From an archaeon (GTDB lineage Archaea > Asgardarchaeota > Thorarchaeia > Thorarchaeales > Thorarchaeaceae): DNA of 64,000 bases. The translations under genes and the position numbers were made by a program. Under the pieces are notes generated by a model. The model saw only the letters and a program-made list of their open reading frames with translations, was not told the DNA's origin and did no database searches. The stretch spans positions 1 to 64,000 of the forward strand of contig JAJRWI010000009.1 in assembly GCA_024276825.1 (NCBI GenBank), written 5' to 3'. Shown here one piece after another: positions 19,119 through 35,976 of the stretch (the stretch's first letter is position 1; each line of letters begins with the position of its first letter).

Positions 19119-19134
19119 TCAAGGTTGAAGATTG

Positions 19135-20022
19135 ATGAGAGTAAGAATCGGCGACACAGTGATTCCATATCCTATCAATCGAATTGTGGGCCATCTTCGA
19201 CTGGTGGGACTATCATACAATGATTGCTTCAGATTGACCCAGCCACTATATAATAATGCCCGGATTTTTGAGCTATCCGAACTATTGGAATATTTGAATA
19301 AAGAAATATTCAATATATCGGAAGAAGCGGCGGAGTCGTTTGAATTGATAAACAGGTATCAGGGTCTCAGGAGGTCGAAGAGGGGCGTGCCGCCAATCAT
19401 CATAGTCCTTGAAGGAGCTTCTGCAACGGGCAAGTCATTGCTGAGTATCTCCGTCATATCAAATCTGGGTCTAGCCAGAATAATCAGTACAGACAGCGTC
19501 CGACAGATATTACGATCCGTCATCAGCAAGGATGAGCACCCAGAATTGTTCTGTCATACTTATCAGGCCCACAAGTACAGAATGAGCGGCAACCCCAGAT
19601 TGAGCGAGTCAGTGAGGGGATTTCTCGCACAGGTGGACTTGATGAGGTCTGCATTGGAAAGTGCCGTGCAATTACTCATCAGTGAGGGTGCTGATGGAAT
19701 GATAGAGGGAGTCCATATTGTGCCAGGGTCATTCTCAAGGCTTGAGAAGAGTGTTCTTGAAATCTTGATACATCCCAGTGCTGAGATGCACAAAATGATG
19801 TTCATTTCAAAGAGCAAGGCTGCAGCATTGAAGTCAGTCAGTAATGATGAACAGATCAGAAGAGTCGAGTTCAAAGCGACGCGTGAGATACAGGACTACA
19901 TGTATGAGCAGGCAACGAAGAACGGGGTCCCAATAATCCAACTAGAGGATTATGAGAGTGCAGAGAATGAGCTTAATGCACTCATTCTCCGCAGAGTCCG
20001 AGAACTTGTGAGCGAGTTTTAG
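19135..20022 (+). CDS. 2-phosphoglycerate kinase-like P-loop kinase
   Basis: EGASATGKS Walker A, IISTDSVRQILR, IEGVHIVPG, REIQDY. Confidence 0.75.
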   Translation: MRVRIGDTVIPYPINRIVGHLRLVGLSYNDCFRLTQPLYNNARIFELSELLEYLNKEIFNISEEAAESFELINRYQGLRRSKRGVPPIIIVLEGASATGKSLLSISVISNLGLARIISTDSVRQILRSVISKDEHPELFCHTYQAHKYRMSGNPRLSESVRGFLAQVDLMRSALESAVQLLISEGADGMIEGVHIVPGSFSRLEKSVLEILIHPSAEMHKMMFISKSKAAALKSVSNDEQIRRVEFKATREIQDYMYEQATKNGVPIIQLEDYESAENELNALILRRVRELVSEF

Positions 20023-21524
20023 GGTATTAATGTGAAGGCGCCGTTTATTGCAAGTTCCATGATTATGCTGGGATTAAGAAATAGAATCACAGTCAGGGCA
20101 GCACAGATGATGACCGCCAGTGTTGGAATTCGGGGCAGTGTGATTCTTGACTCATCAGAGGGGTCTTCAAAGTAAGTGACCTTTAGCACTCGTAGGTAAT
20201 AACCCAGAGAGAACACCGAGTTGATAAGTCCAATCAATGCAAGCCACCACATACCAACTTCCACAGCGCTTTGGAATACGTACCACTTGGCCCAGAGACC
20301 CACAGTGAACGGGATTCCAGCCAGAGATATCATGAATATGACTAGCATTCCCGCAGCTAATGGAGACCGTCTGCTCAATCCAGACAGATCTGCATAAGTG
20401 ATTTCTTTTGCAAGTCTGAGTGAGAGAATCCATATGAGAATGAATGCTCCGGCCTTTGTAATGGCATGTGCAAATGCATAGAACAGTGCTGCTGAGGCAC
20501 CAAAGGAATTGGTTGCGGTAGTCGAGGCGATTCCGATGAACAGGTAGCCCATCTGGGCAATGGATGAAAATGCCAACATCTTGGTGATCGTTATCTTTGG
20601 ATCAAGTGCCAGTACATTGCCAATAATCATGGTTGCAACTGATACTATCACAATAAGCATGCTCCACTCAAAGCGTGCAACAAGGAACCCTACAAGGAGG
20701 ATTCGCATGAGGGCACTTATACCAGTCTTCTTGGTAGCGCCGGCCAAATACGAAACGACATTGCCATCGGAATTGCAATATGTGTCAGGGACCCATTGCC
20801 AGCCAGGGAATATACCAACTTTGAAGCCAAAGGCAATCACAAAAAGGATTAAGGCAAGAATCAGGGGGTATGCTGCTTCGCCAATTGGGGTTGTAGACCA
20901 GATTGTGTTGGCTGCGGCAGCGATAACAGGAATTGATGTGGTCCCTATCACACCATAGACTATTGCAATGCCAAAGGCGAGAAGCATGCTAGAGAGCAGA
21001 CCAATAACCAAGTACTTTACAGCACCGTCAATAGACCCTCTGAATGGACCAAGCGCGACAAGCACGTAAGTTGGTGTGGACATCAACTCCCATGCCATGA
21101 AAAGGGCGACGAGATCATTTGCCATTACAACCCACATGGCTCCCGCGAAAGATATCAGAAATAGTGCGTTATAGATCCCTTTTGAGCCGCCATAACTTGT
21201 GGCAGAGAGCAAGACAATGAAGGCAACAAACAGGATGATATAGATGAAGAAGTCTGTGAAGGCATTTCTGATGAACAGACCACCAAATGAATTGGTTGGT
21301 GCGAGAATTATCATCTCGAGCCCTGAGAGAATCACGCCTATGAAACTGATGGGCAGGGGGTTCCAGCGGAGACCCACCATCAGGGCCAATAATGCAAATA
21401 CTATCAAGGTTATTGCCGGAAGCGAACCAATCCAGTCGCTTGGAACATAGGTTGTCATAAGATCTCTTATTGGACTTGCGATGAGTTCGAACAGTTGTAG
21501 TAGTGGGTCAAATATCTGGAACAT
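20019..21524 (-). CDS. nuoN: Complex I-like subunit N
   Basis: WELMSTPTYVLV, AVKY, FKVGIFP-WVPD, LAFSSIAQMGY, SLAGIPFTVG. Confidence 0.88.
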   Translation of the reverse strand: MFQIFDPLLQLFELIASPIRDLMTTYVPSDWIGSLPAITLIVFALLALMVGLRWNPLPISFIGVILSGLEMIILAPTNSFGGLFIRNAFTDFFIYIILFVAFIVLLSATSYGGSKGIYNALFLISFAGAMWVVMANDLVALFMAWELMSTPTYVLVALGPFRGSIDGAVKYLVIGLLSSMLLAFGIAIVYGVIGTTSIPVIAAAANTIWSTTPIGEAAYPLILALILFVIAFGFKVGIFPGWQWVPDTYCNSDGNVVSYLAGATKKTGISALMRILLVGFLVARFEWSMLIVIVSVATMIIGNVLALDPKITITKMLAFSSIAQMGYLFIGIASTTATNSFGASAALFYAFAHAITKAGAFILIWILSLRLAKEITYADLSGLSRRSPLAAGMLVIFMISLAGIPFTVGLWAKWYVFQSAVEVGMWWLALIGLINSVFSLGYYLRVLKVTYFEDPSDESRITLPRIPTLAVIICAALTVILFLNPSIIMELAINGAFTLIP

Positions 21525-23017
21525 TATGGAATCACCCCTAGCATGTTATCAACAGCTGGTGCTATTAGGTTCAATATCAAGTCAGGCCACACACCCAACA
21601 GAATGACGGGAATCATCATCAGAACAGGAGCAATTAGGTCACTCCAACTGGCCTCTTTAACTCCACTCTCAGGATCTGGCTCGCTAAAGACAATCCTGTT
21701 AAGAGTCCATAACAGATAGCCGACAGTTATGAAAATGCCAAATGCTATCAGCCCTGATAATGGATAGATCATTACTGCGCCAAAGATAATGAGCAACTCG
21801 GCAATAAAGCCACTAAAGCCCGGTAGTCCGAAAGCAGCAAATGATGCAAGGATAAGCAGGACCGACATTCTTGGGGCTTGCTTCAGGAGACCCTTGACCT
21901 TGGGGATCTCGCGAGTGCCAGCAGAATATTTCAACTGTCCTGCCATGATGAACATCACAGAGATGATTGTTCCATGGGAGAACATCATGAATACTGCACC
22001 CTGAATTGCCAGACTTGTTCCCACTGCCACTCCAAGTAAGACCCAAGACATGTGATTGATTGAGGTATAGGCGACCATACTCTTGAGATCAGTCTGGGCC
22101 ATTGCGGTGAATGCCGCATAAATGCATGTAAAGATGGCAAGAATTACGAATGGAATGCTGAGTCTTGCAAATGCATCAGGCACAAGCCAGACACCAAGAC
22201 GGATGAAGGCGTATCCGCCCATCTTCAGCAGAATGCCAGCAAGAATTACAGACCCTGGAGTCGGCGCCTTTACATGAGCCCAAGGAAGCCAAGTGTGCAT
22301 CGGAAACACAGGGAGTTTCACTCCAGCGCCCATAAACACCGCAAGAACATAGCCCATCTGCACCATCGATGGAAGACTCATGTCGCGGAGGGCTAACATA
22401 TTGAAGGTATGACCTCCGAAGAAGAAGATCACAAAAAAGCCCACAAGCATGATTGCTGAGCCAAAGTGTGTGAAGATAAAGAACTTGATGGCCGCATGTT
22501 TGCAACCCTCCTCACCCCATTTGCCAATTATGAAGAACATGGGGATTAAGACCAGTTCCCACATAACAAAGAATCCCACAAGGTCGATGGACATGAAGAC
22601 TCCAAGCAGGCCGGTCTGCATGAACATGAATAATGAATAGTAAAGGCTCTGTGACTTGTTGATGTGGTTCGAGCTGATGGCTGCAATGAGAGTGACGATG
22701 TTGGACAATAGAATCATCACAACCGAGATACCATCAACTCCCAATGCGAGTTGCATGTTGGCCCAATCACCAGATACATAGATTCTGCCAAATGTGTAGG
22801 CCCATAGAAATGTCATGTCTGAGGAGGGATCAATACCAAGTGCCAGTAAAACTGCAAGTCCGAGTTCGAACAACGAAATTACCAGTGTGATTGCTCTTGC
22901 TGCCCGAGAACCGGTCAATAGAGATAGGAAAGCACCAATCAATGGCGCAAGCAGCATCAATGGCAGTATTGGTAGTGGCAAGCTCTGAAGTATCTGTAAG
23001 GCAAAGTCCAACTGCAA
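21524..23017 (-). CDS. nuoM: Complex I-like subunit M (canonical copy)
   Basis: DGIS, WELVLIPMF, AAIKFF, KLPVFPMHTWLPWAHVKAPTPGSVILAGILLKMGGY, AYTSINHM, SHG, GFIAE. Confidence 0.9.
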   Translation of the reverse strand: MQLDFALQILQSLPLPILPLMLLAPLIGAFLSLLTGSRAARAITLVISLFELGLAVLLALGIDPSSDMTFLWAYTFGRIYVSGDWANMQLALGVDGISVVMILLSNIVTLIAAISSNHINKSQSLYYSLFMFMQTGLLGVFMSIDLVGFFVMWELVLIPMFFIIGKWGEEGCKHAAIKFFIFTHFGSAIMLVGFFVIFFFGGHTFNMLALRDMSLPSMVQMGYVLAVFMGAGVKLPVFPMHTWLPWAHVKAPTPGSVILAGILLKMGGYAFIRLGVWLVPDAFARLSIPFVILAIFTCIYAAFTAMAQTDLKSMVAYTSINHMSWVLLGVAVGTSLAIQGAVFMMFSHGTIISVMFIMAGQLKYSAGTREIPKVKGLLKQAPRMSVLLILASFAAFGLPGFSGFIAELLIIFGAVMIYPLSGLIAFGIFITVGYLLWTLNRIVFSEPDPESGVKEASWSDLIAPVLMMIPVILLGVWPDLILNLIAPAVDNMLGVIP

Positions 23018-25204
23018 TCACAGCACCCCCATTATGACAAGAAGGATGATTATCATCACTCCAAGTCCAAAGATTATCATTGCAACATAATCGTTGATAC
23101 GTCCCGTCTGCACAGTCATTCCCGTTCTGGATGCCTGCACACTCTGAGTGGCCACACCCTCAGCAAAGCCATCGATGACATGATCATCGAACCATCTAAT
23201 CTTTCTCGACATCGTCTGTGCCAGTCTTGATGAACCAAAGTCAATGCCATCTATTATTCGATTGTCAATCTTTACACGCCACCACTCGACAAACCTCAAG
23301 AACTTGTAAAGTACCCAGTAATAGAACTCGTTGATATACCAGCGATGTTTCAAAAAGCTGTAGACTCTTCTTCGGACTCCTCTTTCGGGAATGAGTGCAT
23401 TGTTCTTACCTTCACCCTTGATGTAAATCATATATGCAGGAATGCCGCCCAGCGCCAATGCAGCCAGAGTGGCTCCAAAGGGTATCAGGCCAGGCATGGT
23501 GATCTTGACTATAATCATTTCCATGAGAATCTCATCCCATGGAGTATCTGCAGCCAAGACAATGTTCTGAATTATCGGGTAAATGAGAAACGCGATTAGT
23601 GTGAATCCAGCAAGAATGTACAGTGGAATCATCATTGCAGGGCCCGGATCATGAGGCGAATTATGCGCCTCTTTATCTTGCATTTCATGATGCTCTTCTT
23701 CATGGCCATAGAACACGATACCCATTAGTCTGATACTATAGAATATTGTGCACATAGCAGCCAAGACTGCAAGTATGAACAAGACCATTCCAAGCTGATT
23801 CAGAAACACACCTGCCTCAGAGGCCACTGCAAGCTCATATGTGTATTCGATGATTGAGTCTTTTGACCAGAACCCTGAGAATGGAGGAATTCCAGCAAGT
23901 GCTGCAACTCCAATCCACATCACCGCCAGGGTTCTTGGCATGTACTTCTTGAGACCACCCATTTTTGTCATGTACTTGGTATGAACCGCATGAATTACTC
24001 CGCCTGCTGCAAGGAATAGGAGAGCCTTGAAGGCACCATGACTGATGACATGAAGAACAGAAGAGAGATAGGCGGCTTCCCCAGCATGGAGGAGATGTTC
24101 ATTGGCCCCAATCAAAAGACCGCCAACGCCAATCGCCAACATCATGTAGCCCAGCTGACTTAGAGTAGAGAATGCCAGAACCTGCTTCATTTCGTTTGAT
24201 GTCATACCCATGGTTGCTGTCATGAATGCAGTAATGGCACCAATGACAGCAATAACGAGGAAGAATGTCTGTGCACTGCCGAGCGAGATTAGAGAGGATT
24301 GAATATGTCCTGCAGCTTCCACAAGAGTGATGAGAAATCTGGCGCTTATGTATACTCCGGCCTTGACCATGGTGGCAGCATGAATTAGGGCAGAAACAGC
24401 AGTTGGACCTGCCATGGCCTCAGGCAGCCAAACCTGCAGTGGTGCCTGTCCGGACTTTCCAATCGCACCCATGAATATCAGCAGGAAGGTCGGTATCAGC
24501 ATTCCAGCCCCAACCATTGCTACAAACCATTCACCACTCTCAGCCATTTCAGTGAACATGAATGTTCCAGTGAAGAGAAATAGGAGAAGTATTCCCCCTA
24601 GCATAAAGGCGTCACCAATTCTTGTGACTATGAATGCCTTTGTGCCACAGTGTGTATTGTATTGACCCTCAGTCTTATAGTTCAGCAATGGATTGCTCTG
24701 AGGATAACCTGTGGGATCTTCTTCAGGAGGATTTCGTTTGTCGTTCCAGAAGCCAATCAGTCCATAGGAACAGAACCCCATTATCTCCCAGCCAATGAAC
24801 CCGATCAATAGGTTGTTGCTCAATACAAGTGTCAGCATTCCGCCTCCGAAGGCAAGCATCAGGAAGAAGAATCGATCTTTGTCCTCTTCATGTGCCATAT
24901 ATTCGGTACTGTAGACATAAATGAGGAAGCAGAGCGTGCTGGCCAGAACAGCCATAATAACCGACAGGGGATCCAATAAGACACCAAACTCAAGATGCAA
25001 TGAGGGAATCCACATCCAAGTTGTCTGTGTCTGAGGATTGTTGATCTCAAGGAGTAGCGACCAGCACAAGATCATAGTGATCCCCATCAGAATTGCGGGA
25101 GTCCAGTCTCTTAATTTCTGACTGAGCCTTCCAATCAGGGGGACGAATAATGAACCAGCAAGGGGAATCACAAGAATGATGTAATAGGGTAATCCGAACA
25201 GCAT
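23018..25204 (-). CDS. nuoL: Complex I-like subunit L with lengthened lateral helix
   Basis: GWEIMGFCSYGLIGFW, GKSGQAPLQVWLPEAMAGPTAVSALIHAATMVKAGVY, STLSQLGYM, GFWSKD, QTG. Confidence 0.92.
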   Translation of the reverse strand: MLFGLPYYIILVIPLAGSLFVPLIGRLSQKLRDWTPAILMGITMILCWSLLLEINNPQTQTTWMWIPSLHLEFGVLLDPLSVIMAVLASTLCFLIYVYSTEYMAHEEDKDRFFFLMLAFGGGMLTLVLSNNLLIGFIGWEIMGFCSYGLIGFWNDKRNPPEEDPTGYPQSNPLLNYKTEGQYNTHCGTKAFIVTRIGDAFMLGGILLLFLFTGTFMFTEMAESGEWFVAMVGAGMLIPTFLLIFMGAIGKSGQAPLQVWLPEAMAGPTAVSALIHAATMVKAGVYISARFLITLVEAAGHIQSSLISLGSAQTFFLVIAVIGAITAFMTATMGMTSNEMKQVLAFSTLSQLGYMMLAIGVGGLLIGANEHLLHAGEAAYLSSVLHVISHGAFKALLFLAAGGVIHAVHTKYMTKMGGLKKYMPRTLAVMWIGVAALAGIPPFSGFWSKDSIIEYTYELAVASEAGVFLNQLGMVLFILAVLAAMCTIFYSIRLMGIVFYGHEEEHHEMQDKEAHNSPHDPGPAMMIPLYILAGFTLIAFLIYPIIQNIVLAADTPWDEILMEMIIVKITMPGLIPFGATLAALALGGIPAYMIYIKGEGKNNALIPERGVRRRVYSFLKHRWYINEFYYWVLYKFLRFVEWWRVKIDNRIIDGIDFGSSRLAQTMSRKIRWFDDHVIDGFAEGVATQSVQASRTGMTVQTGRINDYVAMIIFGLGVMIIILLVIMGVL

Positions 25205-25214
25205 CTGTCACACC

Positions 25215-26744
25215 TCACGGAGTCGGAATGATATTAATCAGGTGACTGACTGCAGGCATAATCACATCCACAGCAAGCCCTGGGAATATTCCAAATAGCA
25301 CAATCAGCACGCCCAGTAGTATCTGGGGAATGATCATTGAGCGTGGACCCTCTTTGACATCTTCCAGCTCATCAGGATGAGGCCCGAGAAAGACCTTCCA
25401 GAGAAACCGCAGCATGTAGCCAGCACTAATGATTGAGCTCGAAACAGCAAAGATTGTCAGTATCAGAAAATTGAATGATCCAGTAGCATAATAGACTTGG
25501 AAGCCACCCAGAAACATCAACCATTCACTAGCAAAGCCTGAGAGGGGTGGGCTGCCTGCAATGCTCATGGCTCCGACTGCAGCCATAAATGCGGTGATTG
25601 GCATCTTATTGGAGAGACCGCCCATCTTATTGATATCTCTCAGACCTGTCTGATGGATAACTGTTCCAGCAGTCATGAACAACAGACCTTTTGAGAAGGC
25701 ATGATTAATCAGATGAAACATGCCTCCAGTCACGCCAAATGTGGAAAATGTGCCAAGGGCAAAGAGCACATAGCCCATTTGCGAAACTGATGAGTAAGCG
25801 AGCAGTCTCTTGATGTCCACTTGAACCAGTGCCATGAAGCCACCATAGAACATTGTGATGACGCCAATAGAACTGATGAAGAAAGCGAGGTCTCTGGCTG
25901 CTGAAAAGAGCATGATGTTTCCGAAGCGCATTAGAGCATAGGCACCGGTTTCAATCATTGCACCTGACAAGAGAACAGATATTGGAGTTGGAGCTTCAGC
26001 GTGAACGGGAGGTAGCCACCAATGGATTGGGAATACCGCCATCTTGACGAGAAACCCTGCAGCGAGTAAGATGAATATCACCTTGAGCATTCCAGAAGCA
26101 ATCAGTTCGCCAACAGCAGGCCCTCCAGCTATCAGAAATGCCTGAATGTCATTCAATACAAACATTCCTGTCACCATGTAGGTCAGTCCAAGGCCAACGA
26201 TTATGCAGACAGCTCCAGCCTGTGTGTAAAGCCAGAACTTCAGAGCTGTCCGCTGACGAGTTTCGGGTAGGCCCCAGAATAGTATCAGGAAATAGCTTGG
26301 GACCAACATCAGCTCCCAGGCGATGAAGAACTCTACGATGTTAGTTGCAAGAGTGACCCATTGCATGCCCATTAGAAAGAACAGTTGATTTGCAAAGAAG
26401 GTCGACCTGTTCTCCATATGTTTCGTATAGCCGATAGCATAGACAACTGACAGGAATCCAAGGAATACTACAGCGAAAGTAATGGGAAATGCGACACCAT
26501 CAAGAAACAGGCCAAATGAGCCCAAAACCGATGACCACTCGATAGACTCAAGGGCCACACCATTCTCGACCATCACACGATAGAACGGCGGTATCATGAG
26601 CAGCAAAGCAACAAAGGAGATTGCCGAGGCAACTTTTCCCGCATAGTTTTCAAATCGATCACCGTTCAGATATATCAACAGGCCGCCAAAGAACAGCACC
26701 ACGAGGGATGCTGTCATGAATGGAAATTCTACTATCTGCATCAT
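25215..26744 (-). CDS. nuoM: Additional NuoM-like antiporter subunit
   Basis: WELMLVPSY, ALKF, KMAVFPIHWWLPPVHAEAPTPISVLLSG, LAYSSVSQMGY, NHAFSK, GFASE. Confidence 0.8.
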   Translation of the reverse strand: MMQIVEFPFMTASLVVLFFGGLLIYLNGDRFENYAGKVASAISFVALLLMIPPFYRVMVENGVALESIEWSSVLGSFGLFLDGVAFPITFAVVFLGFLSVVYAIGYTKHMENRSTFFANQLFFLMGMQWVTLATNIVEFFIAWELMLVPSYFLILFWGLPETRQRTALKFWLYTQAGAVCIIVGLGLTYMVTGMFVLNDIQAFLIAGGPAVGELIASGMLKVIFILLAAGFLVKMAVFPIHWWLPPVHAEAPTPISVLLSGAMIETGAYALMRFGNIMLFSAARDLAFFISSIGVITMFYGGFMALVQVDIKRLLAYSSVSQMGYVLFALGTFSTFGVTGGMFHLINHAFSKGLLFMTAGTVIHQTGLRDINKMGGLSNKMPITAFMAAVGAMSIAGSPPLSGFASEWLMFLGGFQVYYATGSFNFLILTIFAVSSSIISAGYMLRFLWKVFLGPHPDELEDVKEGPRSMIIPQILLGVLIVLFGIFPGLAVDVIMPAVSHLINIIPTP

Positions 26745-27172
26745 CTGAATCTACTCCCTCGCCATTCTAGAGGATCCCTGTCTAGGGTTTCTATTCTTTC
26801 TGGATCGTAATGCAATCGCTCGCGTTCTGGCTCGCTCAGATCAACCACTTTAGTATGGAACAAGGCATTAAACCGACATGCTTGAACACAGAGGCCACAG
26901 AATATGCATCGAGTATAGTCAAAATACAAGGCTGCATCCTTCTCATATTTGCGGTCAGACTTGTCAATTCTGATGGCCACGACAGGGCAGGCCCGCACAC
27001 ATTGTGCGCATGCAGTACATTTCTCTCTAATGTGTATATGTCGGCCTCGTGTACGTTCAGGATGCTCCCGGTCCTCGTAGGGATAGAGCACCGTAAATGG
27101 TCGCTCAAAGACCTGACTGAACACATGTTTTAAGATTGTGAATATTTCTCCGAGAGTTGAAAAGAACCCCAT
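26741..27172 (-). CDS. nuoI: Complex I-like subunit I, 2x[4Fe-4S]
   Basis: TVLYPYE, RGRH, CTACAQCVRACP, CIFCGLCVQAC. Confidence 0.92.
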   Translation of the reverse strand: MGFFSTLGEIFTILKHVFSQVFERPFTVLYPYEDREHPERTRGRHIHIREKCTACAQCVRACPVVAIRIDKSDRKYEKDAALYFDYTRCIFCGLCVQACRFNALFHTKVVDLSEPERERLHYDPERIETLDRDPLEWRGSRFR

Positions 27173-27176
27173 TTGC

Positions 27177-28316: not shown

Positions 28317-28326
28317 TCTTATCCTC

Positions 28327-29463
28327 CTATCTGTCCCAAAGCCCGGGATATGGATCTAGACTTCCAAATATCACAATAAAGTCTGCAAAGCGCGATCCTG
28401 GCACTAGATGCTTTAAGGCATAGTATGAGGCAAAGCACGGGCCTCGAATCTTCGCCCTATAGGCGGTCTGTGCCTTTTCGGTCGTCTTCAACCAGAGGGA
28501 GGTTATTCCTCGTGTCCCTTCAACTCTGCCATATGCCTCGCCTTCAGGTAGTCTGTTTGCCTTTGCTCTTGCCTTTGGATCAATTATTGGACCTTCTGGA
28601 ATCTGAGGCAATAGCTGTCGTATTATGTTGATTGAGGTCTCAACCTCCAAAAACCGCTGAACCATTCTGTCGTAAGCATCGCTCTGGCCGGGATGCTCCT
28701 CATTGTGAACCGTGGGCACTTCCCAGTCTGCAAGATCATAGGCGAGGTTGGAGTCGGGCTTGTCCTTTCGCAGGTCCATTGGCACCCCACACGCCTTGAT
28801 GTTCGGTCCTGAGAGACCCCAACGTAGGCCCTGTTCTGCACTGAAGAGACCTACATTCTTTGTACGAAGACGAAATGTCGGGCCATGTAATAGCATATCT
28901 TTGAACTTCGGCAATCGTTCCTCGATCCGCAATAGTGCACGATCAAGTTTCTTGAGAAATTTGTCAGTAAAGTCGTATTTCACGCCGCCAGGAGTATTGA
29001 ATGAAACTGCATGACGAGAGCCTGTGAGTTCCTCAAAGGCATCTAGGAAGTATTCACGATCCACCCATGGCCATAATAGCATCGTGAATAGACCAAGTTC
29101 TGCTGCAAACTGCCCCCACCAGAACTGAAGACTATGGATTCGACTGGCCTCCATGAGAATTGTACGCATGATACGGGCACGTTCGGGAACCTCAAGTCCA
29201 GCAATCTGCTCAACCGCTGAAACATATGGATATTCCATAAGAAATGATTCAAGCATGCACAACCGCTCCATCACTAGGGGGCCCTGCCTGAAATTCCTAA
29301 ACTCCAGCACTTTTTCAGCAGAACGATGGAAGTAGCCAGCATGCGGGTCACATTCCACAATGTAATCACCAATGAGTGTCAGCTTAGCGGCCCAGCCATG
29401 TGCTGAAACATGTTGGGGGCCAAACCAGATCTCGATTGCTTCATCAAGAATGTCAGGACTCAT
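28327..29463 (-). CDS. nuoD: Complex I-like subunit D (no NiFe CxxC motifs)
   Basis: FGPQHVSAHG, GYFHRSAEK, VPERA, PGGV, SGP, C-terminal SLDPYPGLWDR. Confidence 0.9.
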   Translation of the reverse strand: MSPDILDEAIEIWFGPQHVSAHGWAAKLTLIGDYIVECDPHAGYFHRSAEKVLEFRNFRQGPLVMERLCMLESFLMEYPYVSAVEQIAGLEVPERARIMRTILMEASRIHSLQFWWGQFAAELGLFTMLLWPWVDREYFLDAFEELTGSRHAVSFNTPGGVKYDFTDKFLKKLDRALLRIEERLPKFKDMLLHGPTFRLRTKNVGLFSAEQGLRWGLSGPNIKACGVPMDLRKDKPDSNLAYDLADWEVPTVHNEEHPGQSDAYDRMVQRFLEVETSINIIRQLLPQIPEGPIIDPKARAKANRLPEGEAYGRVEGTRGITSLWLKTTEKAQTAYRAKIRGPCFASYYALKHLVPGSRFADFIVIFGSLDPYPGLWDR

Positions 29464-29975
29464 TATTCATTCGCCTCCTTTGGTGGGCGTGGCTTGGGCT
29501 GCGGAAGTCCAGACTCTGCCAATCGACTGCGGTCAGTCATAAAGCTCTTTCTCATGGGATATCTTCCTACAAGTTCATCAGGAAGCAATAGAGGTCTGAG
29601 ATCGGGATGTCCCTTGAACTTGATACCGAACATCTCATGGGTCTCGCGCTCATGCCATTCAAGTCCAGCAATAATATCACTCACAGTATCAATCTCTGGG
29701 GGCTCGCCCTCAAGTAGAACCCGCACTTGAACCAGCAGTCTTTTGTTTCGCGACCAGAAGATGTAGATCATCTCATACTGATTGTTCCTTAGATCCACAC
29801 CGAAGCACGATTCAGGAAACAGATCATTGATGTACTCGTCTAAGAATCTGATTACATCACGTATCTTCTCCGGAGCTGCTTTGATGTCCAGTCTGTCAAT
29901 TGATGGCACTACTTCAATATCAGGCATCTTGTTGACCAGTTCCCGAGCCAGAGTCATTGCCTCACCATCACTCAT
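29463..29975 (-). CDS. nuoC: Complex I-like subunit C
   Basis: WHERETHEMFGIKFKGHPDLRPLLLP...PMRK; ATG 29975 overlaps the nuoK end. Confidence 0.9.
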   Translation of the reverse strand: MSDGEAMTLARELVNKMPDIEVVPSIDRLDIKAAPEKIRDVIRFLDEYINDLFPESCFGVDLRNNQYEMIYIFWSRNKRLLVQVRVLLEGEPPEIDTVSDIIAGLEWHERETHEMFGIKFKGHPDLRPLLLPDELVGRYPMRKSFMTDRSRLAESGLPQPKPRPPKEANE

Positions 29976-30288
29976 CAGAAATCTCCTCCTGAACAACTGG
30001 GACACCGAGGTCAATGGTCTGATATCTACGATGATACATGAGCATTAGTACCATGGCCAGAGCTGTATGAGCTGCAGCTACTGAAATAATCAGAATGACA
30101 AGACCTTGGCCAGTGAATGTAAAAGTGTCCAGATATAATGAGAATGCAACTAGAGCGATCATTACACCATTTCCCATGATTTCTGCGCTAATGATTATTC
30201 GAATGAGGTTTCTCTTCACCATCATTCCATATGCTCCAAGCCCAATGAGCATGAAAGCAAGTGCAAGATACCATGATAATGGAATCAT
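29968..30288 (-). CDS. nuoK: Complex I-like subunit K
   Basis: RNLIRIIISAEIM, GQ, VAAA; three TMs. Confidence 0.9.
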   Translation of the reverse strand: MIPLSWYLALAFMLIGLGAYGMMVKRNLIRIIISAEIMGNGVMIALVAFSLYLDTFTFTGQGLVILIISVAAAHTALAMVLMLMYHRRYQTIDLGVPVVQEEISDE

Positions 30289-30290
30289 CC

Positions 30291-30959
30291 TTATGTCCCC
30301 TCCTCTTCAGCATCCTGTGCCATTATGACAGGAACGGTGTCTTCTGATTTGTTTCCCGCCTTTGCTTTTTCAGAAGTGTCATCATCCCAGGTCGCTAAGC
30401 CATATACACCACTCTCAGGGTTCAAATGCTCAGCCTTCTCAAGCTTAAGGATTGCAAGTGAACCAATTAATGATGTGAGAATAATTATCGCGATAAACTG
30501 AACATATATTCCATGGTTACCCCAAAGCCATTGCGCAAGCCCTTCAAGGCTCTGAGCCAAGTCAACATTAACTGCAGGGATCTCAGTGGGCCAAGTGAAT
30601 AAAAAGACCAGACTCCCGCTCAAGATTATTACAAATATTGAAAGAACAATTCCTAATCGCTTCTTTCTGATTGTCTCAAAGCGCTCGCGCGTTGTGTCAT
30701 GAAAGATGGGAAGTAGTAATACTCCAAAGATTATCAGCACACTGATGCCTCCAGTGTAGACAGCAATCTGCATACCTGCAACAAAGGGGGCTTCAAGCAA
30801 TAGGAAAAAGCCTGCTACAAAGGAGGCCATTATTCCAAAGAAGAACACTGCATAGACCAAGTCTTTGTGTTCAAGAGCCAGTATTGCAAGAACAAGCACA
30901 ATTCCTGCAATTAGAAGGAATTCAATATGTTCGAGTAGTGCTTCAATCTGCATAAGCAT
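30291..30959 (-). CDS. nuoJ: Complex I-like subunit J
   Basis: LEAPFVAGMQIAVYTGGISVLIIFGVLL. Confidence 0.88.
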   Translation of the reverse strand: MLMQIEALLEHIEFLLIAGIVLVLAILALEHKDLVYAVFFFGIMASFVAGFFLLLEAPFVAGMQIAVYTGGISVLIIFGVLLLPIFHDTTRERFETIRKKRLGIVLSIFVIILSGSLVFLFTWPTEIPAVNVDLAQSLEGLAQWLWGNHGIYVQFIAIIILTSLIGSLAILKLEKAEHLNPESGVYGLATWDDDTSEKAKAGNKSEDTVPVIMAQDAEEEGT

Positions 30960-31393
30960 TAATGGTGAACCTCCTTTGTTTCATGCTTGGTTTTTGCCTC
31001 CCGATACAGCTTGAGGGTCTCCTCGCCAGACAGGAAGGTTTGCGGCAGAATCTTTACAGCAAACATGATTCCTGCCATTATGAACAGAGCAAAGAAAAGG
31101 ACCTGCCAGACAACCATCTTATCAAGTCGTAGTGCAGATACTGAGAACAACCAAAGAAAGGCGCCCATTACATCTACAACTAGAAACAAGATGGAATAGA
31201 CTATGTAATTATAGGGATATGAGACTCTTGCTGGACCAATTGGCTCTTCACCGCATTCATAGGTCGAGGTCTTCTCAGAGTTCTGCAACACATGGGGACG
31301 TAGCACCCATGAAGCAAGCAGCATAACAATAACCAGAACAACTGCAAGTATTGCCCATACCAGCACGGGGATGAAGTCCAGGAACAATCTCAT
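30959..31393 (-). CDS. nuoA: Complex I-like subunit A
   Basis: EKTSTYECGEEP, ILFLVVDV; GGTGA SD upstream. Confidence 0.9.
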   Translation of the reverse strand: MRLFLDFIPVLVWAILAVVLVIVMLLASWVLRPHVLQNSEKTSTYECGEEPIGPARVSYPYNYIVYSILFLVVDVMGAFLWLFSVSALRLDKMVVWQVLFFALFIMAGIMFAVKILPQTFLSGEETLKLYREAKTKHETKEVHH

Positions 31394-31407
31394 GCTATCA
31401 CCGTCCC

Positions 31408-31433
31408 CATGTTGATGTTATCAAATCAACATG
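31408..31433. promoter_or_regulatory. Perfect 9-bp inverted repeat upstream of nuoA (operator or leader hairpin)
   Basis: catgttgat-gttatcaa-atcaacatg between the SD and a TTTTTATC TATA-like element (about 31463-31470, minus strand). Confidence 0.5.
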
Positions 31434-31556
31434 TGAAGTAGGATTCTAGCCACAATTTCCATGATAAAAAGACTTCGCAAGCAAGGAGAAGATGTTATAT
31501 ATAGCTCATTTACGAATTCTGACATGTGTTGAAAGGAACAGAATGGTGAAAGATTC

Positions 31557-31922
31557 ATGGTCATGATCAAAATCACATGGACTTCATTGTATTATGTAGG
31601 GTTCATACTAGGACTATTCTTGGTCGCCACAAATCTCTGGGTCATTATCGACACAATTCCTGTTAATTATACGGTTCATTTCATTCTATTCATGAGCGGA
31701 ATTGGAATGGTAATCTCAACATTGCTTATTGTCAATTCAAGCAGCCGGTCGGGAAGATTATTATTGACGATTGCATCGGGGTCCTTGGCAGGAGTTCATG
31801 GATTTCTTGATGTGGTCTACTTTCCAACCCTTCCAGGATATTTCATGTTCATGTGGCTGGCTTTCGGAACATTGTTGACCCTCTCCTGCTACGATTGGCT
31901 GGCCAGAAAGCCATCTGCATAG
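31557..31922 (+). CDS. Hypothetical 4-TM membrane protein
   Basis: Four hydrophobic segments; TTATATAT box at about 31496. Confidence 0.65.
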   Translation: MVMIKITWTSLYYVGFILGLFLVATNLWVIIDTIPVNYTVHFILFMSGIGMVISTLLIVNSSSRSGRLLLTIASGSLAGVHGFLDVVYFPTLPGYFMFMWLAFGTLLTLSCYDWLARKPSA

Positions 31923-31926
31923 TTGT

Positions 31927-32451
31927 TCATGATGTGCTTTCTTCTGATTGGTCTCCTGCAGAAGGCACTGTTTCAGTTTTGGGTTTCTTTTCAGGTTCAG
32001 GCTCTGGCTCAGGCGCAGGCTTAGGGCCATAATGGAGAGCACTCACATCCATTATCCCAAGAGTCGTGGCCTGATCATAGCTGTGTCTCATGGAGAAACC
32101 CAAAGCAACAACAATTGCACTCCCAATACCCCAAGTTGTGAGAAACACCCCTCCAACAGGGTAGGAGATCACAAGGTATAATGCAGAGAGAAAGATTGCC
32201 AATGCGAGCATGTTGATCCTCAACTTCTTCCTCTTTGGTCTGAAATAGCCAATGAATAAAAACACAAGAAGCACAGGGATTATTATCAGTGATAGAAATC
32301 TCCCGCCGAGAGATGCGATGAAGTCAGCCTGCAAGAACTGGTTATAGAAGAAATTGAAGTAATATGCTGCAAAGAAGAGTATTCCAACCCACAATGTGCA
32401 GTATGGATCAGCATCCTCACGAAGTCTTGGTGTTCTTGACTCAGAACTCAT
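31927..32451 (-). CDS. Hypothetical 4-TM membrane protein with PE-rich tail, coupled to the FAD-NuoB fusion
   Basis: ATGA overlap with the upstream stop at 32448-32451; hydrophobic segments; PKPAPEPEPEPE. Confidence 0.65.
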   Translation of the reverse strand: MSSESRTPRLREDADPYCTLWVGILFFAAYYFNFFYNQFLQADFIASLGGRFLSLIIIPVLLVFLFIGYFRPKRKKLRINMLALAIFLSALYLVISYPVGGVFLTTWGIGSAIVVALGFSMRHSYDQATTLGIMDVSALHYGPKPAPEPEPEPEKKPKTETVPSAGDQSEESTS

Positions 32452-34388
32452 TTGATCAACCCCATTGCATCTTGGCTCTCGTGTTTGAGTTGCCAATGAG
32501 TAGTGCCTGCTCGAATCTTATTCTCTAGAATGATATGAGCACGAACAAAGTCAGATGGCTTGGGCGGGCAGCCAGGCAGATAGACATCAACAGGAACAAT
32601 TGACTCTGGAGAAGTGACCAAGGAATAGCCATCCCAGAAAAGGCCCCCACTTGCAGCACATTGACCGAAAGAGATGACGAACTTTGGTTCGGGCATCTGT
32701 TCATAGATGCGCCTGAGTCGTGGAGCCATCTTCTTAGTGAGTGATCCTGAGATCCACAAAACATCACATTGACGTGGACCAAAGAGAGGCAGCATTCCGA
32801 ACCGCTCAATGTCCCATCGTGATGCAACTGCTGCAGCACCATCGACCATGCAGCAGCCAAGTCCATATTGTACAGGCCAAGGACTGTGAGCTCTGCCCCA
32901 ACGAAGTATCCATTTAACAGGAGGCAAGTTCTGAAGCCATTTTAAGAATATTGGCGCGATCCTACCAAAGCCGTTTCTGAATAGGTCGAATCCCAACCAC
33001 ATGAAATACTTGCCAACCCGTAATATGAAAGGTAACCAGAAGGCAAAGATCTTGCCTGGATTTGATATCTCCTTTGGGTCATACTTTAGCTTTGCAGCGC
33101 GAATCTTTCCAAGGCGTCGCTTGCCAAAGTACTGCGGAGCATAGTTTGCGAACCAGATGCCTGTGGAATGTGGATGTCCACCATGACGCTGTGCAATCTT
33201 GAATATCACAAAGCTCTGAGACCAGCTTAGCATGAAAAAGTGTCTGCGTTCATCCTCGAGAAAATAGCCCATCATTGTCACGCCATTCTTAGAGGTCACA
33301 TAGCCATCGATCCCTGCTCTTGCAGATGCCTGCTCAAACTGAAAGTCATCAAGAATTGCCTCTAAGTTTTCTAGTGGGGCAAATGCTTGGCCGACCACTA
33401 ATGTTGGACCAGCCTTTTTGATCTTCATTGGATAGAAACGTTCATGCCACTCATGTTCAGCAACTTGATCATCATAAACAGTACCTTTGAGTTCTGCTGT
33501 GACCCTCTTCACTACTTCGATACCTTCCTCGATCTCTTCTTCAGGGCCATCATATGCCACCAGCATTACACAGTGATGTACTGGAAATGGAAATCGCTCT
33601 TTCTTATCCCATATTCGTTTCTTTAAGTCAACATATTTGCTCTCTTCGAACTTGATTGTATGTGGAAGAGGCCCCTCCTCAATTATCTTCTCTATTGCGA
33701 ACACCATTAGATAGTTCTCTGGAAAGCTTGCGACAATGGCCTTTATCTTTGTAAGTGGCTTTACTTTGAGTTTGATCTTAGTGATAATGCCAAGAATGCC
33801 CTCAGTGTCGCAGAACAGTTCGCGATCCTTGCTCTTCACAATTCTACCTGTTGGAATGACCACTTCAAACTCAAGCACATTTTCGTTGATATTCCCGTAC
33901 TTTAGGGAGCCGATGCCATCACCGCCTTGAGCAACCCAACCGCCAATAGTGGCAGCAAGTCCTGACGATGGGTAAGCACGCAGATCAAGTCCTTGCCTGT
34001 TCAACTCAAACTGAAGGTTTGCCCAGGAAATTCCTGGTTCTACAACAACAGTCAGGTTCTCTTTGTCAATCTCTATTATTGAGTCCATTCTACGCATGTC
34101 AACAATTATTCCACCTTTGCGTGGGATGGCACCGCCATATCCCGAGGTGCCTGCCCCGCGGGGGACAATTGGAATCTCTTCTTGATTGGCGAATTCATAG
34201 AGAGCCTTAATCTCTTCGGGTGTAGTGGGCTGAACAATGGCATCAGGTTTGTTGTTCATCAACCAGCCTACTTGTTTTGGCAGAGAACCGACATCCATCG
34301 AGTCGATGATGAGCTCATGTTTTTCAAGAATAACACGATCACCAAAGAGTTCTTTGAGCCTATCGACATGATGTTTTTTCAGTTTCAA
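32448..34388 (-). CDS. Fusion: GlcD/D-lactate dehydrogenase-family FAD oxidoreductase + NuoB
   Basis: N-terminal PRGAGTSGYGGA, VEPG, TIGGW, TEGILGIITK, DPKEISNPGK; C-terminal GLGCC, DIERFG, PRQCD, MPEPKFVISFGQCAASGG, PVDVYLPGCPP. TTG 34388 follows GGAG. Confidence 0.9.
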   Translation of the reverse strand: MKLKKHHVDRLKELFGDRVILEKHELIIDSMDVGSLPKQVGWLMNNKPDAIVQPTTPEEIKALYEFANQEEIPIVPRGAGTSGYGGAIPRKGGIIVDMRRMDSIIEIDKENLTVVVEPGISWANLQFELNRQGLDLRAYPSSGLAATIGGWVAQGGDGIGSLKYGNINENVLEFEVVIPTGRIVKSKDRELFCDTEGILGIITKIKLKVKPLTKIKAIVASFPENYLMVFAIEKIIEEGPLPHTIKFEESKYVDLKKRIWDKKERFPFPVHHCVMLVAYDGPEEEIEEGIEVVKRVTAELKGTVYDDQVAEHEWHERFYPMKIKKAGPTLVVGQAFAPLENLEAILDDFQFEQASARAGIDGYVTSKNGVTMMGYFLEDERRHFFMLSWSQSFVIFKIAQRHGGHPHSTGIWFANYAPQYFGKRRLGKIRAAKLKYDPKEISNPGKIFAFWLPFILRVGKYFMWLGFDLFRNGFGRIAPIFLKWLQNLPPVKWILRWGRAHSPWPVQYGLGCCMVDGAAAVASRWDIERFGMLPLFGPRQCDVLWISGSLTKKMAPRLRRIYEQMPEPKFVISFGQCAASGGLFWDGYSLVTSPESIVPVDVYLPGCPPKPSDFVRAHIILENKIRAGTTHWQLKHESQDAMGLIK

Positions 34389-34749
34389 TTGGCTTTCTCC
34401 TTTCAGTTCTGAGTGGTTGCCATCAATCTTAATGGAATAAAAAATGTTCCCATTCACAATTCAAGAGTAAATAATGGAGAATTATTGAACATTTTTTCAG
34501 ATCTATTCGTTGATTTGCATACATGGTCCAATGAAATAAGCATACTTCAAGCATCTGATTTGTTTCCTGATAAGAAGTCTTGATTAAGATCGCACCTGCC
34601 AAGAAGGAACAAAATAGTTCAGTGATTACAAAATGGCAATCAATTATTAATTATCTTTGACAGTGATTTGAATATCCTTATTTGGGAAAAGTATTAGTGG
34701 GAGGAAAAACGCCAAAGAGCCTAACTGGAAATTCATTGAGGTATCGATT

Positions 34750-35976
34750 ATGCGATTCTCAACTCTGAACAAGTTTGGTCTTCAAGACATTCCATTCACT
34801 TGCGCTCAATGCAGCTTTTGTCAGGTAGGCAATGGCGCATGTCCTACCTACAAGGTCAAACGAAGAAACAGCTATTCAGGCAAGGGAAAGATGGTTCTCA
34901 CTAGATCCTTGATGCAGGGCCGATTAAGTAAGAATGATGGTCTTGAAGGTCTACGCGATGCAATATTTGGCTGCACGCTTTGCGGCGGTTGCGAGGAGAT
35001 TTGCCAAGTGGACATTCCATTTGTTCAGATCTATCAACTCATGCGTGCAGAGTTTTTGAAGCGCGGCATGTGGCCAGAACAACTTGTGCCAATGCGTGAA
35101 ACCCTTGTTAAGGAGAGAAACATTCAAGGACAATGGAATGGCGACAGAGTTGAGGGTTGGTCATATTGGCATCCTGATGAGGATGAGTTATTAGAACATG
35201 TGGGCCGCAAAGCCAAGACTGCTTTCTATGTGGGCTGCACATCCTCGTTTAGGGGCATTCCAATTCAGGCCACCATAGCCACTACTCTTATTATGGAAAA
35301 GACAGGTGAGGATTACACCCTGCTTGGTGAGGAAGAGTGGTGTTGTGGGGCCCCATTAATCATGACTGGAGATTTCGACACAGCAAGGCAATTTGCAGAG
35401 CATAATATCGCAGCATATCAGGAGTTGGGTGTTGAGAAGATTGTGACCAACTGTCCAGGATGCTACAAGATGTGGGCACATGAATATCATGAGTTTCTTG
35501 AAATAGATGTTCCATTTGAGGTCCAATATGGTGCCCAGTATCTTGCTGAGCTCGTTGATGATAACAGGCTCACTGGACTCTCCAATCCACTAGATGTGTC
35601 AATCACTTTTCATGACGGATGTGATGCTGGCAGGAATTGTGGAATTTATGAAGAGCCTCGTAAGGTGCTCGAATATCTCCCAGGCGTTGAATTTGAAGAG
35701 CTTCCTCATAATAAGAACCGTTGCTATTGTTGTGGCTCTGGGGGTGTGCTTCGTCCAGTCGATGCAGACTTTGCAATCCAGATTAACAGACTCAAGGTCA
35801 AGGACATTGAACAGACAAATGCGGATTTGGTGATTTCTGCGTGCCCGTCATGTGTTGATTTCATGTATGACCAGTTGCCGCAAGCAAGCTCAAATCGAAT
35901 CAGCAAGGATCTTGCAGTCATAGTGGCTCAGGCACTTGGTCTCACATGGGATGGTCTAGAAGAAACTTATGGTTAG
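34750..35976 (+). CDS. HdrD/GlcF/GlpC-like Fe-S oxidoreductase (2x[4Fe-4S] + two CCG domains)
   Basis: CAQCSFC..CP, CTLCGGCEEIC, VGC..WCCG..CPGC, HDGC..CCG..CPSC. Confidence 0.9.
   Translation: MRFSTLNKFGLQDIPFTCAQCSFCQVGNGACPTYKVKRRNSYSGKGKMVLTRSLMQGRLSKNDGLEGLRDAIFGCTLCGGCEEICQVDIPFVQIYQLMRAEFLKRGMWPEQLVPMRETLVKERNIQGQWNGDRVEGWSYWHPDEDELLEHVGRKAKTAFYVGCTSSFRGIPIQATIATTLIMEKTGEDYTLLGEEEWCCGAPLIMTGDFDTARQFAEHNIAAYQELGVEKIVTNCPGCYKMWAHEYHEFLEIDVPFEVQYGAQYLAELVDDNRLTGLSNPLDVSITFHDGCDAGRNCGIYEEPRKVLEYLPGVEFEELPHNKNRCYCCGSGGVLRPVDADFAIQINRLKVKDIEQTNADLVISACPSCVDFMYDQLPQASSNRISKDLAVIVAQALGLTWDGLEETYG

Follow-up and report, generated by a model that had tools for sequence, protein, structure and literature searches.

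A GlcD-like flavoprotein fused to NuoB in a complex I relative of Thor-type Asgard archaea

Complex I is thought to have evolved by the addition of electron-input modules (NuoEFG, FpoF, and ferredoxin sites) to a hydrogenase-derived core. To our knowledge, all known input modules act at the far end of the iron-sulfur (Fe-S) chain. A locus of a Thorarchaeaceae archaeon departs from this pattern. It lies in the first 64,000 nucleotides of contig JAJRWI010000009.1 (GenBank assembly GCA_024276825.1), the stretch analyzed here and called the window. In this locus, a GlcD-like flavoenzyme with an HdrD-like partner is attached to NuoB, the subunit that holds the last cluster (N2) beside the quinone site. 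The host belongs to a widespread Asgard group whose energy metabolism is inferred from genomes only. What does a flavoenzyme do at this end of the pump? We conclude that the locus encodes a complex I relative that carries an appended module without known precedent. As to its role, we tentatively favor an enzyme in its own right that shares the carrier pool of the pump.

The fusion is read in a single open frame of 669 codons (window 32448-34457, minus strand) with no interruption. Residue numbers refer to this frame, which runs up to a GTG at 34457. The true start is probably the TTG at 34388, which has a GGAG upstream and would give 646 amino acids. Since the orthologs are 646 amino acids long and align from residue 24, where this TTG stands, the gene is taken as 32448-34388(-), an assignment based on Pfam, NCBIfam, and ortholog length. 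Its N-terminal part (residues 24-470; 33048-34388(-)) is a FAD domain resembling GlcD and D-lactate dehydrogenase (D-LDH) by Pfam, AlphaFold2 (AF2), and Foldseek, and ends in NPGKIF. Pfam finds FAD_binding_4 at residues 71-208 (E 2e-40, 138 bits) and FAD-oxidase_C at residues 239-470 (E 1.6e-12). A Trp/Phe-rich amphipathic helical linker follows (residues 471-511; 32925-33047(-); AF2 and ortholog alignment). The C-terminal part is a NuoB domain by Pfam and NCBIfam (residues 512-669; 32451-32924(-), stop codon at 32448-32450). In this domain, Oxidored_q6 (PF01058) covers residues 536-640 (E 4e-23, 82 bits against a cut-off of 27), and the curated NCBIfam cut-offs are passed for TIGR01957 nuoB_fam (170.9 bits; 142.7) and NF005012 (178.5 bits; 116). 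The four Cys ligands of N2, including the tandem pair, are present, and the motifs GLGCC, GQC, and PGCPP align with those of a standalone NuoB; the closest standalone NuoB proteins are 62-63% identical to this domain.

The linker region (residues ~471-525) contains 8 Phe and 5 Trp among 55 residues. Its peak Kyte-Doolittle value in a 19-residue window is 1.37, under the transmembrane level, and AF2 predicts three helices. The region is composed of a C-terminal tail typical of the flavoprotein subfamily, followed by the N-terminal helices of NuoB, and the tether leads into the helix directly before the tandem cysteines of N2. An earlier note on this DNA, made from the letters alone, had described one uninterrupted frame that joins FAD_binding_4/FAD-oxidase_C to NuoB through a Trp/Phe-rich linker, and the domain searches and the composition of the linker bear out both points.

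Could two genes have been wrongly joined by assembly or annotation? The 141-residue stretch across the junction is intact at 80-91% identity in 57 of the 87 species-level genomes of the order, in 12 genera. A single-contig genome of the same genus carries the entire locus in identical order. About 46 protein clusters from four archives (NCBI, JGI, ENA, and Logan) share the three-domain architecture and belong to Thorarchaeota wherever a source is named. With an unbroken junction in 57 independent assemblies, the single-contig genome among them, and this shared architecture, the probability of an artifact is negligible. The fusion is real and has been selected for. Among 44 orthologs, the identity of the linker is 80-84%, compared with 78% for the flavin domain, and its length is invariant. 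Conservation at least as high as that of the FAD domain, together with a fixed length, marks the linker as a structured part of the protein that selection maintains, and not as a loose tether.

The fusion is found in one clade of Thor-type Asgard archaea, a widespread group. An exhaustive HMMER search of 1.84 billion representatives, in which other fused forms would be expected near the top ranks, returned only one 50%-identity cluster that spans both domains. A scan of genome contigs with the NuoB part was dominated by a motif common to actinobacterial NuoB and added two named Thorarchaeota loci. An apparent short fusion in one genome (G007) was rejected: a 100-N scaffold gap lies inside the gene, and the NuoB C-terminus resumes after the gap. 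Among the genomes sampled, every one with this nuo operon has the fused NuoB, never an unfused one. NCBI names these fusion proteins simply 'NuoB'. Literature searches, whose coverage left out most subscription journals, turned up NuoB-C and NuoB-C-D fusions, headless complex I-like enzymes of Asgard archaea, and Dld/HdrD pairs, but no paper describing a flavoprotein-NuoB fusion, in line with the earlier note, which did not recognize the architecture as described.

The fused NuoB probably belongs to a pump whose other genes lie on the minus strand at 20019-31393. The gene order nuoA-J-K-C-D-H-I-M-L-M-N given in the earlier note is confirmed by Pfam, as are the CCG and 2x[4Fe-4S] motifs of the protein encoded at 34750-35976(+). 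The units are nuoA (30959-31393; Oxidored_q4), nuoJ (30291-30959; Oxidored_q3), nuoK (29968-30288; Oxidored_q2), nuoC (29463-30014; Complex1_30kDa), nuoD (28327-29463), nuoH (27177-28316; NADHdh), nuoI (26741-27172), and four antiporter-like subunits (20019-26744), namely M-like (25215-26744), L (23018-25204), M (21524-23017), and N (20019-21524). All 11 subunits of the complex I core are present, including the NuoB with tandem-Cys ligands. Pfam and motif comparison show a NuoD without the NiFe cysteine pairs: it has RLCMLE and DPYPG where hydrogenases have RxCGxC and DPCxxC. Its best sequence matches in the PDB are MbsL (4e-56), from the sulfane reductase of Pyrococcus, and Nqo4 (3e-54). NuoD keeps His22, equivalent to His38 of Thermus thermophilus Nqo4, and has Met70 at the position of the quinone-ligand Tyr87. 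A Met is also found at this position in an unfused relative, so the change is not tied to the fusion. In NuoI, both 4Fe-4S cluster motifs found by Pfam are intact, and this subunit is presumed to be the entry point of ferredoxin. By its gene content, the pump is a complete, NuoEFG-less pump of the complex I type.

Does the genome hold another NuoB, or an NADH module on another contig? The genome (2.94 Mb, 98% complete) has five further Oxidored_q6 matches. One of them, on contig C24, was inspected in detail, and the others by sequence comparison. The C24 protein (172 amino acids) has CxxC-type ligands (GSCNGC) and lies in a cluster of nuoA-like, B, C, D, H, and I genes. The 'NuoD' of this cluster has both NiFe motifs intact (RICGICS and DPCFSC). 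With these ligands and this large subunit, the standalone NuoB-like protein belongs to a hydrogenase. The remaining matches were missed or marginal in a phmmer search with the NuoB domain, and one of them adjoins an FrhB-like gene. All five appear to be hydrogenase small subunits, and by these comparisons the fusion supplies the only complex I-type NuoB of the genome. The C24 cluster of six genes (L012:10235-14382, minus strand) corresponds to a group 4 [NiFe] membrane hydrogenase module and adjoins subunits and the activator of a 2-hydroxyglutaryl-CoA dehydratase; three further antiporter-like genes lie apart from it, at C14:53944-58414.

No NuoF or FrhB/FpoF homolog was found on the contig of the fusion; the earlier note had seen no nuoEFG or fpoF in the window. 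Contig C77 carries the only NuoF of the genome, with a NuoE, and FrhB-like genes occur on C70 and C65. The C77 cluster (L013:8126-15052) contains NuoE-like and NuoF-like proteins, the latter with extra ferredoxin domains, an FdhA-type molybdopterin protein, a DHODB-type Fe-S protein, and NfnB/GltD-like genes, with a PCI-domain protein just upstream. It looks like a soluble, possibly bifurcating enzyme of the formate dehydrogenase type. The earlier note had described the fused nuoB as the only one in the window and had named a standalone nuoB with nuoEFG elsewhere as evidence against its proposal. Formally, such genes exist, and across the genome the fused nuoB is the only one of the complex I type alone. 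As counter-evidence they carry no force, the NuoB on C24 being of the hydrogenase type and the NuoE/F on C77 standing with FdhA.

A pump without an NADH module invites the explanation offered in the earlier note, in which the module is an electron input. The flavoprotein, with the CCG clusters as a wire, would replace NuoEFG/FpoF, electrons would pass from the substrate through N2 to quinone, and substrate oxidation would drive pumping. The absence of NuoEFG and FpoF from the locus fits this explanation, as do the fused NuoB as the only one of the complex I type, the entry of a conserved, fixed-length tether into the helix before the N2 cysteines, and the presence of the fused form in each sampled genome with the operon. 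On the other hand, NuoI is intact as a normal ferredoxin-type entry. In solved structures of complex I, moreover, NuoB, NuoD, and NuoH enclose N2, and no neighboring cluster other than N6b is known. Together with the evidence on the flavin domain, on relatives without the pump, and on energetics given below, this makes an input module improbable.

The flavin domain is predicted by AF2 with a predicted local distance difference test (pLDDT) score mostly above 90. Its fold matches mouse D-lactate dehydrogenase (mLDHD) with a template modeling (TM) score of 0.85 and LctD with 0.81, and Foldseek also finds alkyl-DHAP synthase; the FAD_binding_4 plus FAD-oxidase_C architecture and the GlcD/D-LDH fold are thus both present. 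The top 50 Foldseek matches in the PDB are single flavoprotein chains only (D-LDH, LctD of the Ldh-EtfAB complex, and AGPS), with no flavoprotein-CCG complex among them. The domain scores far below the equivalog cut-offs for TIGR00387 glcD (150.9 bits; 567.9) and NF008408 (102 bits; 897). Neither the fusion nor any of the 30 subfamily sequences checked has the His-His-Glu metal-site motifs HxGDGNxH and GEHGxG. E. coli GlcD has both motifs, whereas the equivalent positions in the fusion read VTSKNGVT and a shortened HPHSTG. The subfamily has motifs of its own, EWxERFYPMRxKxxGP and PYS(T/V)G(I/L)W, with the Tyr of the latter replaced by His in Thor sequences, and all members have a hydrophobic tail after NPGK. 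Since the whole subfamily shares both the missing metal motifs and its own conserved ones, the domain represents a distinct enzyme family and not a decayed copy. Judged by these motifs, this is an uncharacterized GlcD-like subfamily for which 'D-lactate dehydrogenase' is not a safe name, and genome surveys that use the name may mis-assign its members. The lack of the 2-hydroxyacid metal triad also counts against an input module.

Divergent from the fusion gene, at 34750-35976(+), lies a gene for a 408-amino-acid HdrD/GlcF/TfrB-like protein, called here the CCG protein. It has two 4Fe-4S motifs and two complete CCG motifs (Pfam Fer4_8 + 2x CCG), the full set of HdrD cofactor motifs, for up to four clusters. 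Over 30 sequences, seventeen cysteines are invariant, and one more, the second Cys in the second CC pair (C328), is conserved in at least 90%. The best match among curated families is TfrB, under the cut-off, and no equivalog cut-off is reached. The gene adjoins the fusion in 10 of the 14 fused genomes examined and a GlcD gene in both genomes of genus g2, which is described below.

The CCG protein is predicted to dock on the FAD domain of the fusion. Complexes were predicted from purpose-built alignments with FAD included. The interaction prediction score from aligned errors (ipSAE) is 0.91 (0.91, 0.92, and 0.91 in the runs), against 0.00 for the best control. The mark set for this score was calibrated on known pairs, where 58 of 80 solved complexes but just 2 of 110 mismatched pairs attained it, and the calibration holds only roughly here; passing the mark supports binding but does not demonstrate it. 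At least 95% of the contacts agree between runs, and the pLDDT of the partner is at least 91. In the predicted interface, the 4Fe-4S Cys region of the CCG protein (residues 13-30 and 84-88) faces loops of the FAD domain and the subfamily motif ERFYPMK. Up to four clusters docked beside FAD in this model would suit the wire of an input module.

The same partner suits the opposite direction of flow, following the pattern of Fpo with heterodisulfide reductase. Electrons from ferredoxin would be drained from N2 or the quinone (Q) site, directly or via a bound carrier, to a cytoplasmic acceptor. This acceptor could be a disulfide or a 2-oxoacid-like compound reduced at the CCG or FAD site, which would make the complex a self-contained ferredoxin:acceptor respiratory unit. 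A reverse mode, in which the proton motive force drives ferredoxin reduction from the substrate of the module, is also possible. Such an output module is supported by the full HdrD cofactor set of the CCG protein and by its best curated match, below cut-off, to TfrB, a thiol-oxidizing CCG subunit. The conserved, fixed-length linker that runs straight into the helix before the N2 cysteines, the pump that never occurs with an unfused NuoB in the genomes sampled, and a NuoD without the canonical quinone-ligand Tyr point the same way and favor the input module as well, although an unfused relative has Met in place of this Tyr too. The span from ferredoxin to an acceptor at -190 mV is ~0.26 V, enough for ion translocation. 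A headless Fpo-like complex with HdrD, proposed in the literature as a hypothesis for Methanomassiliicoccales, provides a precedent. With the genes for a lipid carrier next door speaking against it (see below), we consider an output module unlikely.

The nearest homologs of the flavin domain (36-40% identity) are in many cases single chains of GlcD + Fer4_8 + 2xCCG. One relative (P0090, 41% identity) is fused behind NrfD, a membrane subunit with a quinone site, in another archaeal metagenome-assembled genome (MAG), GCA_046760505.1. The subfamily has thus been fused independently, a second time, to a membrane subunit with a quinone site, and we found no published description of this case. The 867-amino-acid NrfD-GlcD-like fusion (L034:4758-11657 in GCA_046760505.1, and L035) stands in a cluster with two multiheme cytochrome c-like proteins, an NrfC-like Fe-S protein, a divergent CCG protein, and a UbiE-type methyltransferase. 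A fusion of the same subfamily to NrfD, in such company, suggests a link to the membrane and to quinones. It also shows that the subfamily can be attached to the quinone-site subunit of another enzyme, a point in favor of an input module.

The genome of the window has 14 GlcD/VAO-like genes, at least 11 of which adjoin a gene for a CCG protein. The EHGxG motif of true 2-hydroxyacid dehydrogenases is found in one of the 14 (C24:148203-149867). The three closest paralogs of the flavin domain have long hydrophobic C-terminal tails that look transmembrane. Flavoprotein/CCG gene pairs are found on contigs C16 (45285-57706), C64, C81, C8, C48, C73, C40, and C33. On C16, three pairs stand in series, and their flavoproteins end in long hydrophobic, transmembrane-looking tails. 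Many 'Dld' genes adjoin HdrD in other Asgard classes too, alongside a NuoEFG-less complex I and menaquinone genes (PMC9723677). These Dld/HdrD pairs were interpreted as disulfide-linked (PMC9723677), an interpretation that would favor the output module.

How the fusion arose can be approached through relatives that lack it. The closest standalone NuoB proteins are encoded on metagenomic contigs where nuoA-nuoB are divergent from nuoJ-K-C-D-H-I-L. Within 10 kb of these genes lie a geranylgeranyl-reductase-like gene, a polyprenyl synthase, a UbiA-family gene, and a CCG protein, and in one unfused relative flavoprotein/CCG pairs lie 5 kb away. By this setting, the neighborhood of pump, prenylation genes, and CCG proteins is older than the fusion. 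The GlcD-like genes near nuo in these relatives were considered as orthologs of the fused domain and rejected, with 31-35% identity in the FAD domain only. On the metagenome and MAG contigs L033, L129, and L130, nuoA-nuoB divergent from nuoJ-K are followed by B12-binding radical SAM, geranylgeranyl-reductase-like, polyprenyl synthase, and UbiA-family genes; in L129 and L130, the called genes include no nuoC/D/H/I between nuoK and the antiporter-like gene.

Adjacency of this kind could have led to a fusion with no redox role, and the flavoprotein would then be a neighbor gene recruited as an accessory or assembly domain that exchanges no electrons with the pump. Mitochondrial complex I has accessory subunits derived from enzymes, and the absence of the catalytic metal site would fit. 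However, the FAD-binding motifs reach a full score (138 bits), the predicted fold has a pLDDT above 90, the CCG partner keeps its cluster cysteines over 30 sequences, and the motifs shared by the whole subfamily mark a distinct enzyme family. An intact pair is also retained where the pump is missing. A structural or regulatory appendage is therefore very unlikely.

Genus g2 provides this case. It has the same locus with the same flanking genes, arranged as polyprenyl synthase-MenA-CCG-GlcD, and its GlcD (498 amino acids) is 59% identical to the fused domain, tail included. Its genome lacks a nuo operon and any NuoD of the window type. A PPLKWI motif similar to the N-terminal helix of NuoB stands just before the end of the g2 GlcD, and no nuo remnants were found downstream. 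In a quick tree of GlcD domains, with long outgroup branches, g2 is sister to all fused sequences, and the fused clade has a Shimodaira-Hasegawa-like approximate likelihood ratio test (SH-aLRT) support of 86. The g2 protein is either a secondary truncation of the fusion or the pre-fusion state. In both cases, a flavoprotein/CCG pair kept without nuo is viable without the pump and has no need of N2 as a partner, which weighs against the input module. The junction is also absent from genera g4 (0/7), g7 (0/3), and g12 (0/3), and no window-type NuoD was found in G005, G008, and G013, the one representative searched for each of these genera.

We tentatively favor the reading that the module is a self-standing flavoprotein/CCG enzyme attached to the quinone end of a ferredoxin-fed pump, with which it shares a carrier pool without feeding N2 directly. 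Reduced ferredoxin would deliver electrons through NuoI and N6a/N6b to N2 in the fused NuoB domain. The pump would reduce a prenylated membrane carrier, made with the adjoining MenA-like and polyprenyl synthase genes, and translocate ions through the four antiporter-like subunits. In the module, electrons would move between FAD, the ferredoxin-type clusters, and the CCG clusters, as in an enzyme in its own right. Held on the membrane surface by its amphipathic tail, the module would exchange electrons with the local carrier pool at the quinone entrance of the pump, either as a dehydrogenase that feeds the pool or as a reductase that re-oxidizes it. The fusion would set a 1:1 stoichiometry and a defined geometry. 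In this scheme, we infer that ferredoxin is the donor, what kind of carrier is used, which way the electrons flow, and that no direct path leads to N2.

This shared-pool reading is favored because genus g2 keeps the module without the pump, and because the tails of the subfamily are hydrophobic and those of the paralogs look transmembrane. CCG subunits are used at the membrane in GlcDEF, GlpABC, and type E succinate dehydrogenase. A MenA-like prenyltransferase (35973-37037(-); TIGR00751 120.8 bits, cut-off 102.15) and a polyprenyl diphosphate synthase (37235-38302(+)) adjoin the CCG gene, here and in g2, which argues for a lipid carrier and against an output module. The possibility that the MenA-like gene tracks the pump was ruled out, as MenA-like genes also occur in the pump-less genera g7 and g12.

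Energetics separate the readings further. The span from ferredoxin to menaquinone is ~0.38 V, enough for ~4 H+. A lactate-type donor (-190 mV) leaves a span to menaquinone of ~0.12 V, or ~-22 kJ per 2 e-, far under the cost of 4 H+ (~58 kJ at 150 mV). A 2-hydroxyacid:menaquinone span of this size is too small for a pump with four antiporter-like subunits, which is a further point against the input module. Thus, of the proposal in the earlier note that a flavin tethered to the N2 subunit makes a substrate:quinone oxidoreductase that pumps ions, the tether stands, as a real and conserved fusion with no NuoEFG/FpoF at the operon. The pumping driven by the substrate is disfavored by the missing metal site, the ~0.12 V span, and the g2 pair without nuo.

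Several points weigh against the shared-pool reading. A strongly conserved linker of fixed length, joined to the helix before the N2 cysteines, would fit direct coupling as well. In the NrfD fusion, the module may just as well borrow the quinone site of its partner via Fe-S wiring. In NuoD, Met70 replaces the canonical quinone-ligand Tyr, though it does so in the unfused relative as well. MenA-like genes are also present in genera without the pump. A search of the genome, which is 98% complete, found neither known route to the naphthoquinone head group, with no MenD, only sub-cut-off MenB-like matches, and no MqnA/MqnD; this result would instead support the output module, and the input module too. 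Finally, it is not evident what two enzymes would gain from a tether if they had only a diffusible pool in common. Taken over both directions of flow, a complex whose module is connected through Fe-S clusters to N2 or the Q site is possible though doubtful. Such a complex would be an ion-translocating ferredoxin/cytoplasmic-substrate oxidoreductase that handles the substrate at a flavin or CCG site, fed by or discharging into the substrate, without a free quinone pool.

The remaining genes of the locus frame the fusion. The ATG of a gene for a 174-amino-acid membrane protein (31927-32451(-)) overlaps the stop codon of the fusion, so that the two are translationally coupled. This protein belongs to no known family and has several hydrophobic segments and a Pro/Glu-rich tail at its end. 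It is conserved among the relatives that carry nuo genes; in genus g2, which has none, it was not found. Between the fusion unit and nuoA-N, at 31557-31922(+), lies a gene for a 121-amino-acid hydrophobic protein of no known family that is conserved in relatives. With the coupled gene and this opposite-strand gene intervening, the fusion gene stands outside the nuoA-N transcription unit, at a distance of ~1 kb; the presence of the operon nevertheless coincides with that of the fusion in the genomes sampled. Convergent with nuoN, at 19132-20022(+), a gene encodes a 296-amino-acid protein with sub-cut-off similarity to 2-phosphoglycerate kinase, which is a conserved flank of the locus, genus g2 included. 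A 2252-amino-acid open reading frame lies just upstream of the region (11562-18320(-)).

If the module exchanges electrons directly with the pump, the complex is a new respiratory enzyme design and a natural, purifiable test case for the unproven model of a headless complex I with HdrD. Fe-S wiring, if true, would give a physical form to the long-hypothesized 'Fpo-like + HdrD' coupling and define a new class of complex I relative. If the module only shares a carrier pool, the fusion makes a hard-wired respiratory supercomplex.

Among known systems, the closest to the pump are the other NuoEFG-less relatives with 11 subunits, namely the archaeal Fpo/Fqo cores without FpoF and the ferredoxin-dependent NDH-1 type. 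They share the 11 subunits, the tandem-Cys N2 site, a NuoD without NiFe cysteines, a NuoI with two 4Fe-4S clusters, several antiporter-like subunits, and the lack of an NADH module. Unlike these, the complex described here has a 50-kDa flavoprotein on the N-terminus of NuoB, a B gene apart from A-J-K-C-D-H-I-M-L-M-N, an extra M-like subunit, and the Tyr-to-Met change. The model for Methanomassiliicoccales, a literature hypothesis of an energy-converting ferredoxin:heterodisulfide oxidoreductase, likewise combines a headless pump with an HdrD-type protein of the 2x[4Fe-4S]+2xCCG kind. Here, in contrast, the link is covalent and runs through a GlcD-like flavoprotein predicted to bind the CCG protein, and the host is a non-methanogen with a MenA-like gene alongside.

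The module itself resembles GlcDEF, the Dld-II/LdhAB-type enzymes, GlpABC, and TfrAB. These have in common with it a FAD subunit of the VAO/GlcD fold and a GlcF/GlpC/TfrB-like Fe-S/CCG subunit, probably peripheral at the membrane. The flavoprotein described here differs in having no His-His-Glu metal site, in its own motifs and hydrophobic tail, and in its fusion to NuoB. That NuoB is tolerated inside a longer polypeptide is known from the NuoB-C and NuoB-C-D fusions, with NuoC-D as a further fusion of this kind (PMC11237513). These join neighboring core subunits at the C-terminus of NuoB, whereas here a foreign enzyme is joined at its N-terminus. The NrfD-GlcD fusion (P0090, L034) comes nearest in design, with the same flavoprotein subfamily (41% identity), a quinone-site membrane subunit, and an adjoining CCG protein. 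It differs in that its partner is NrfD in a multiheme-cytochrome/NrfC-like cluster and that the fusion is at the N-terminus of the flavoprotein.

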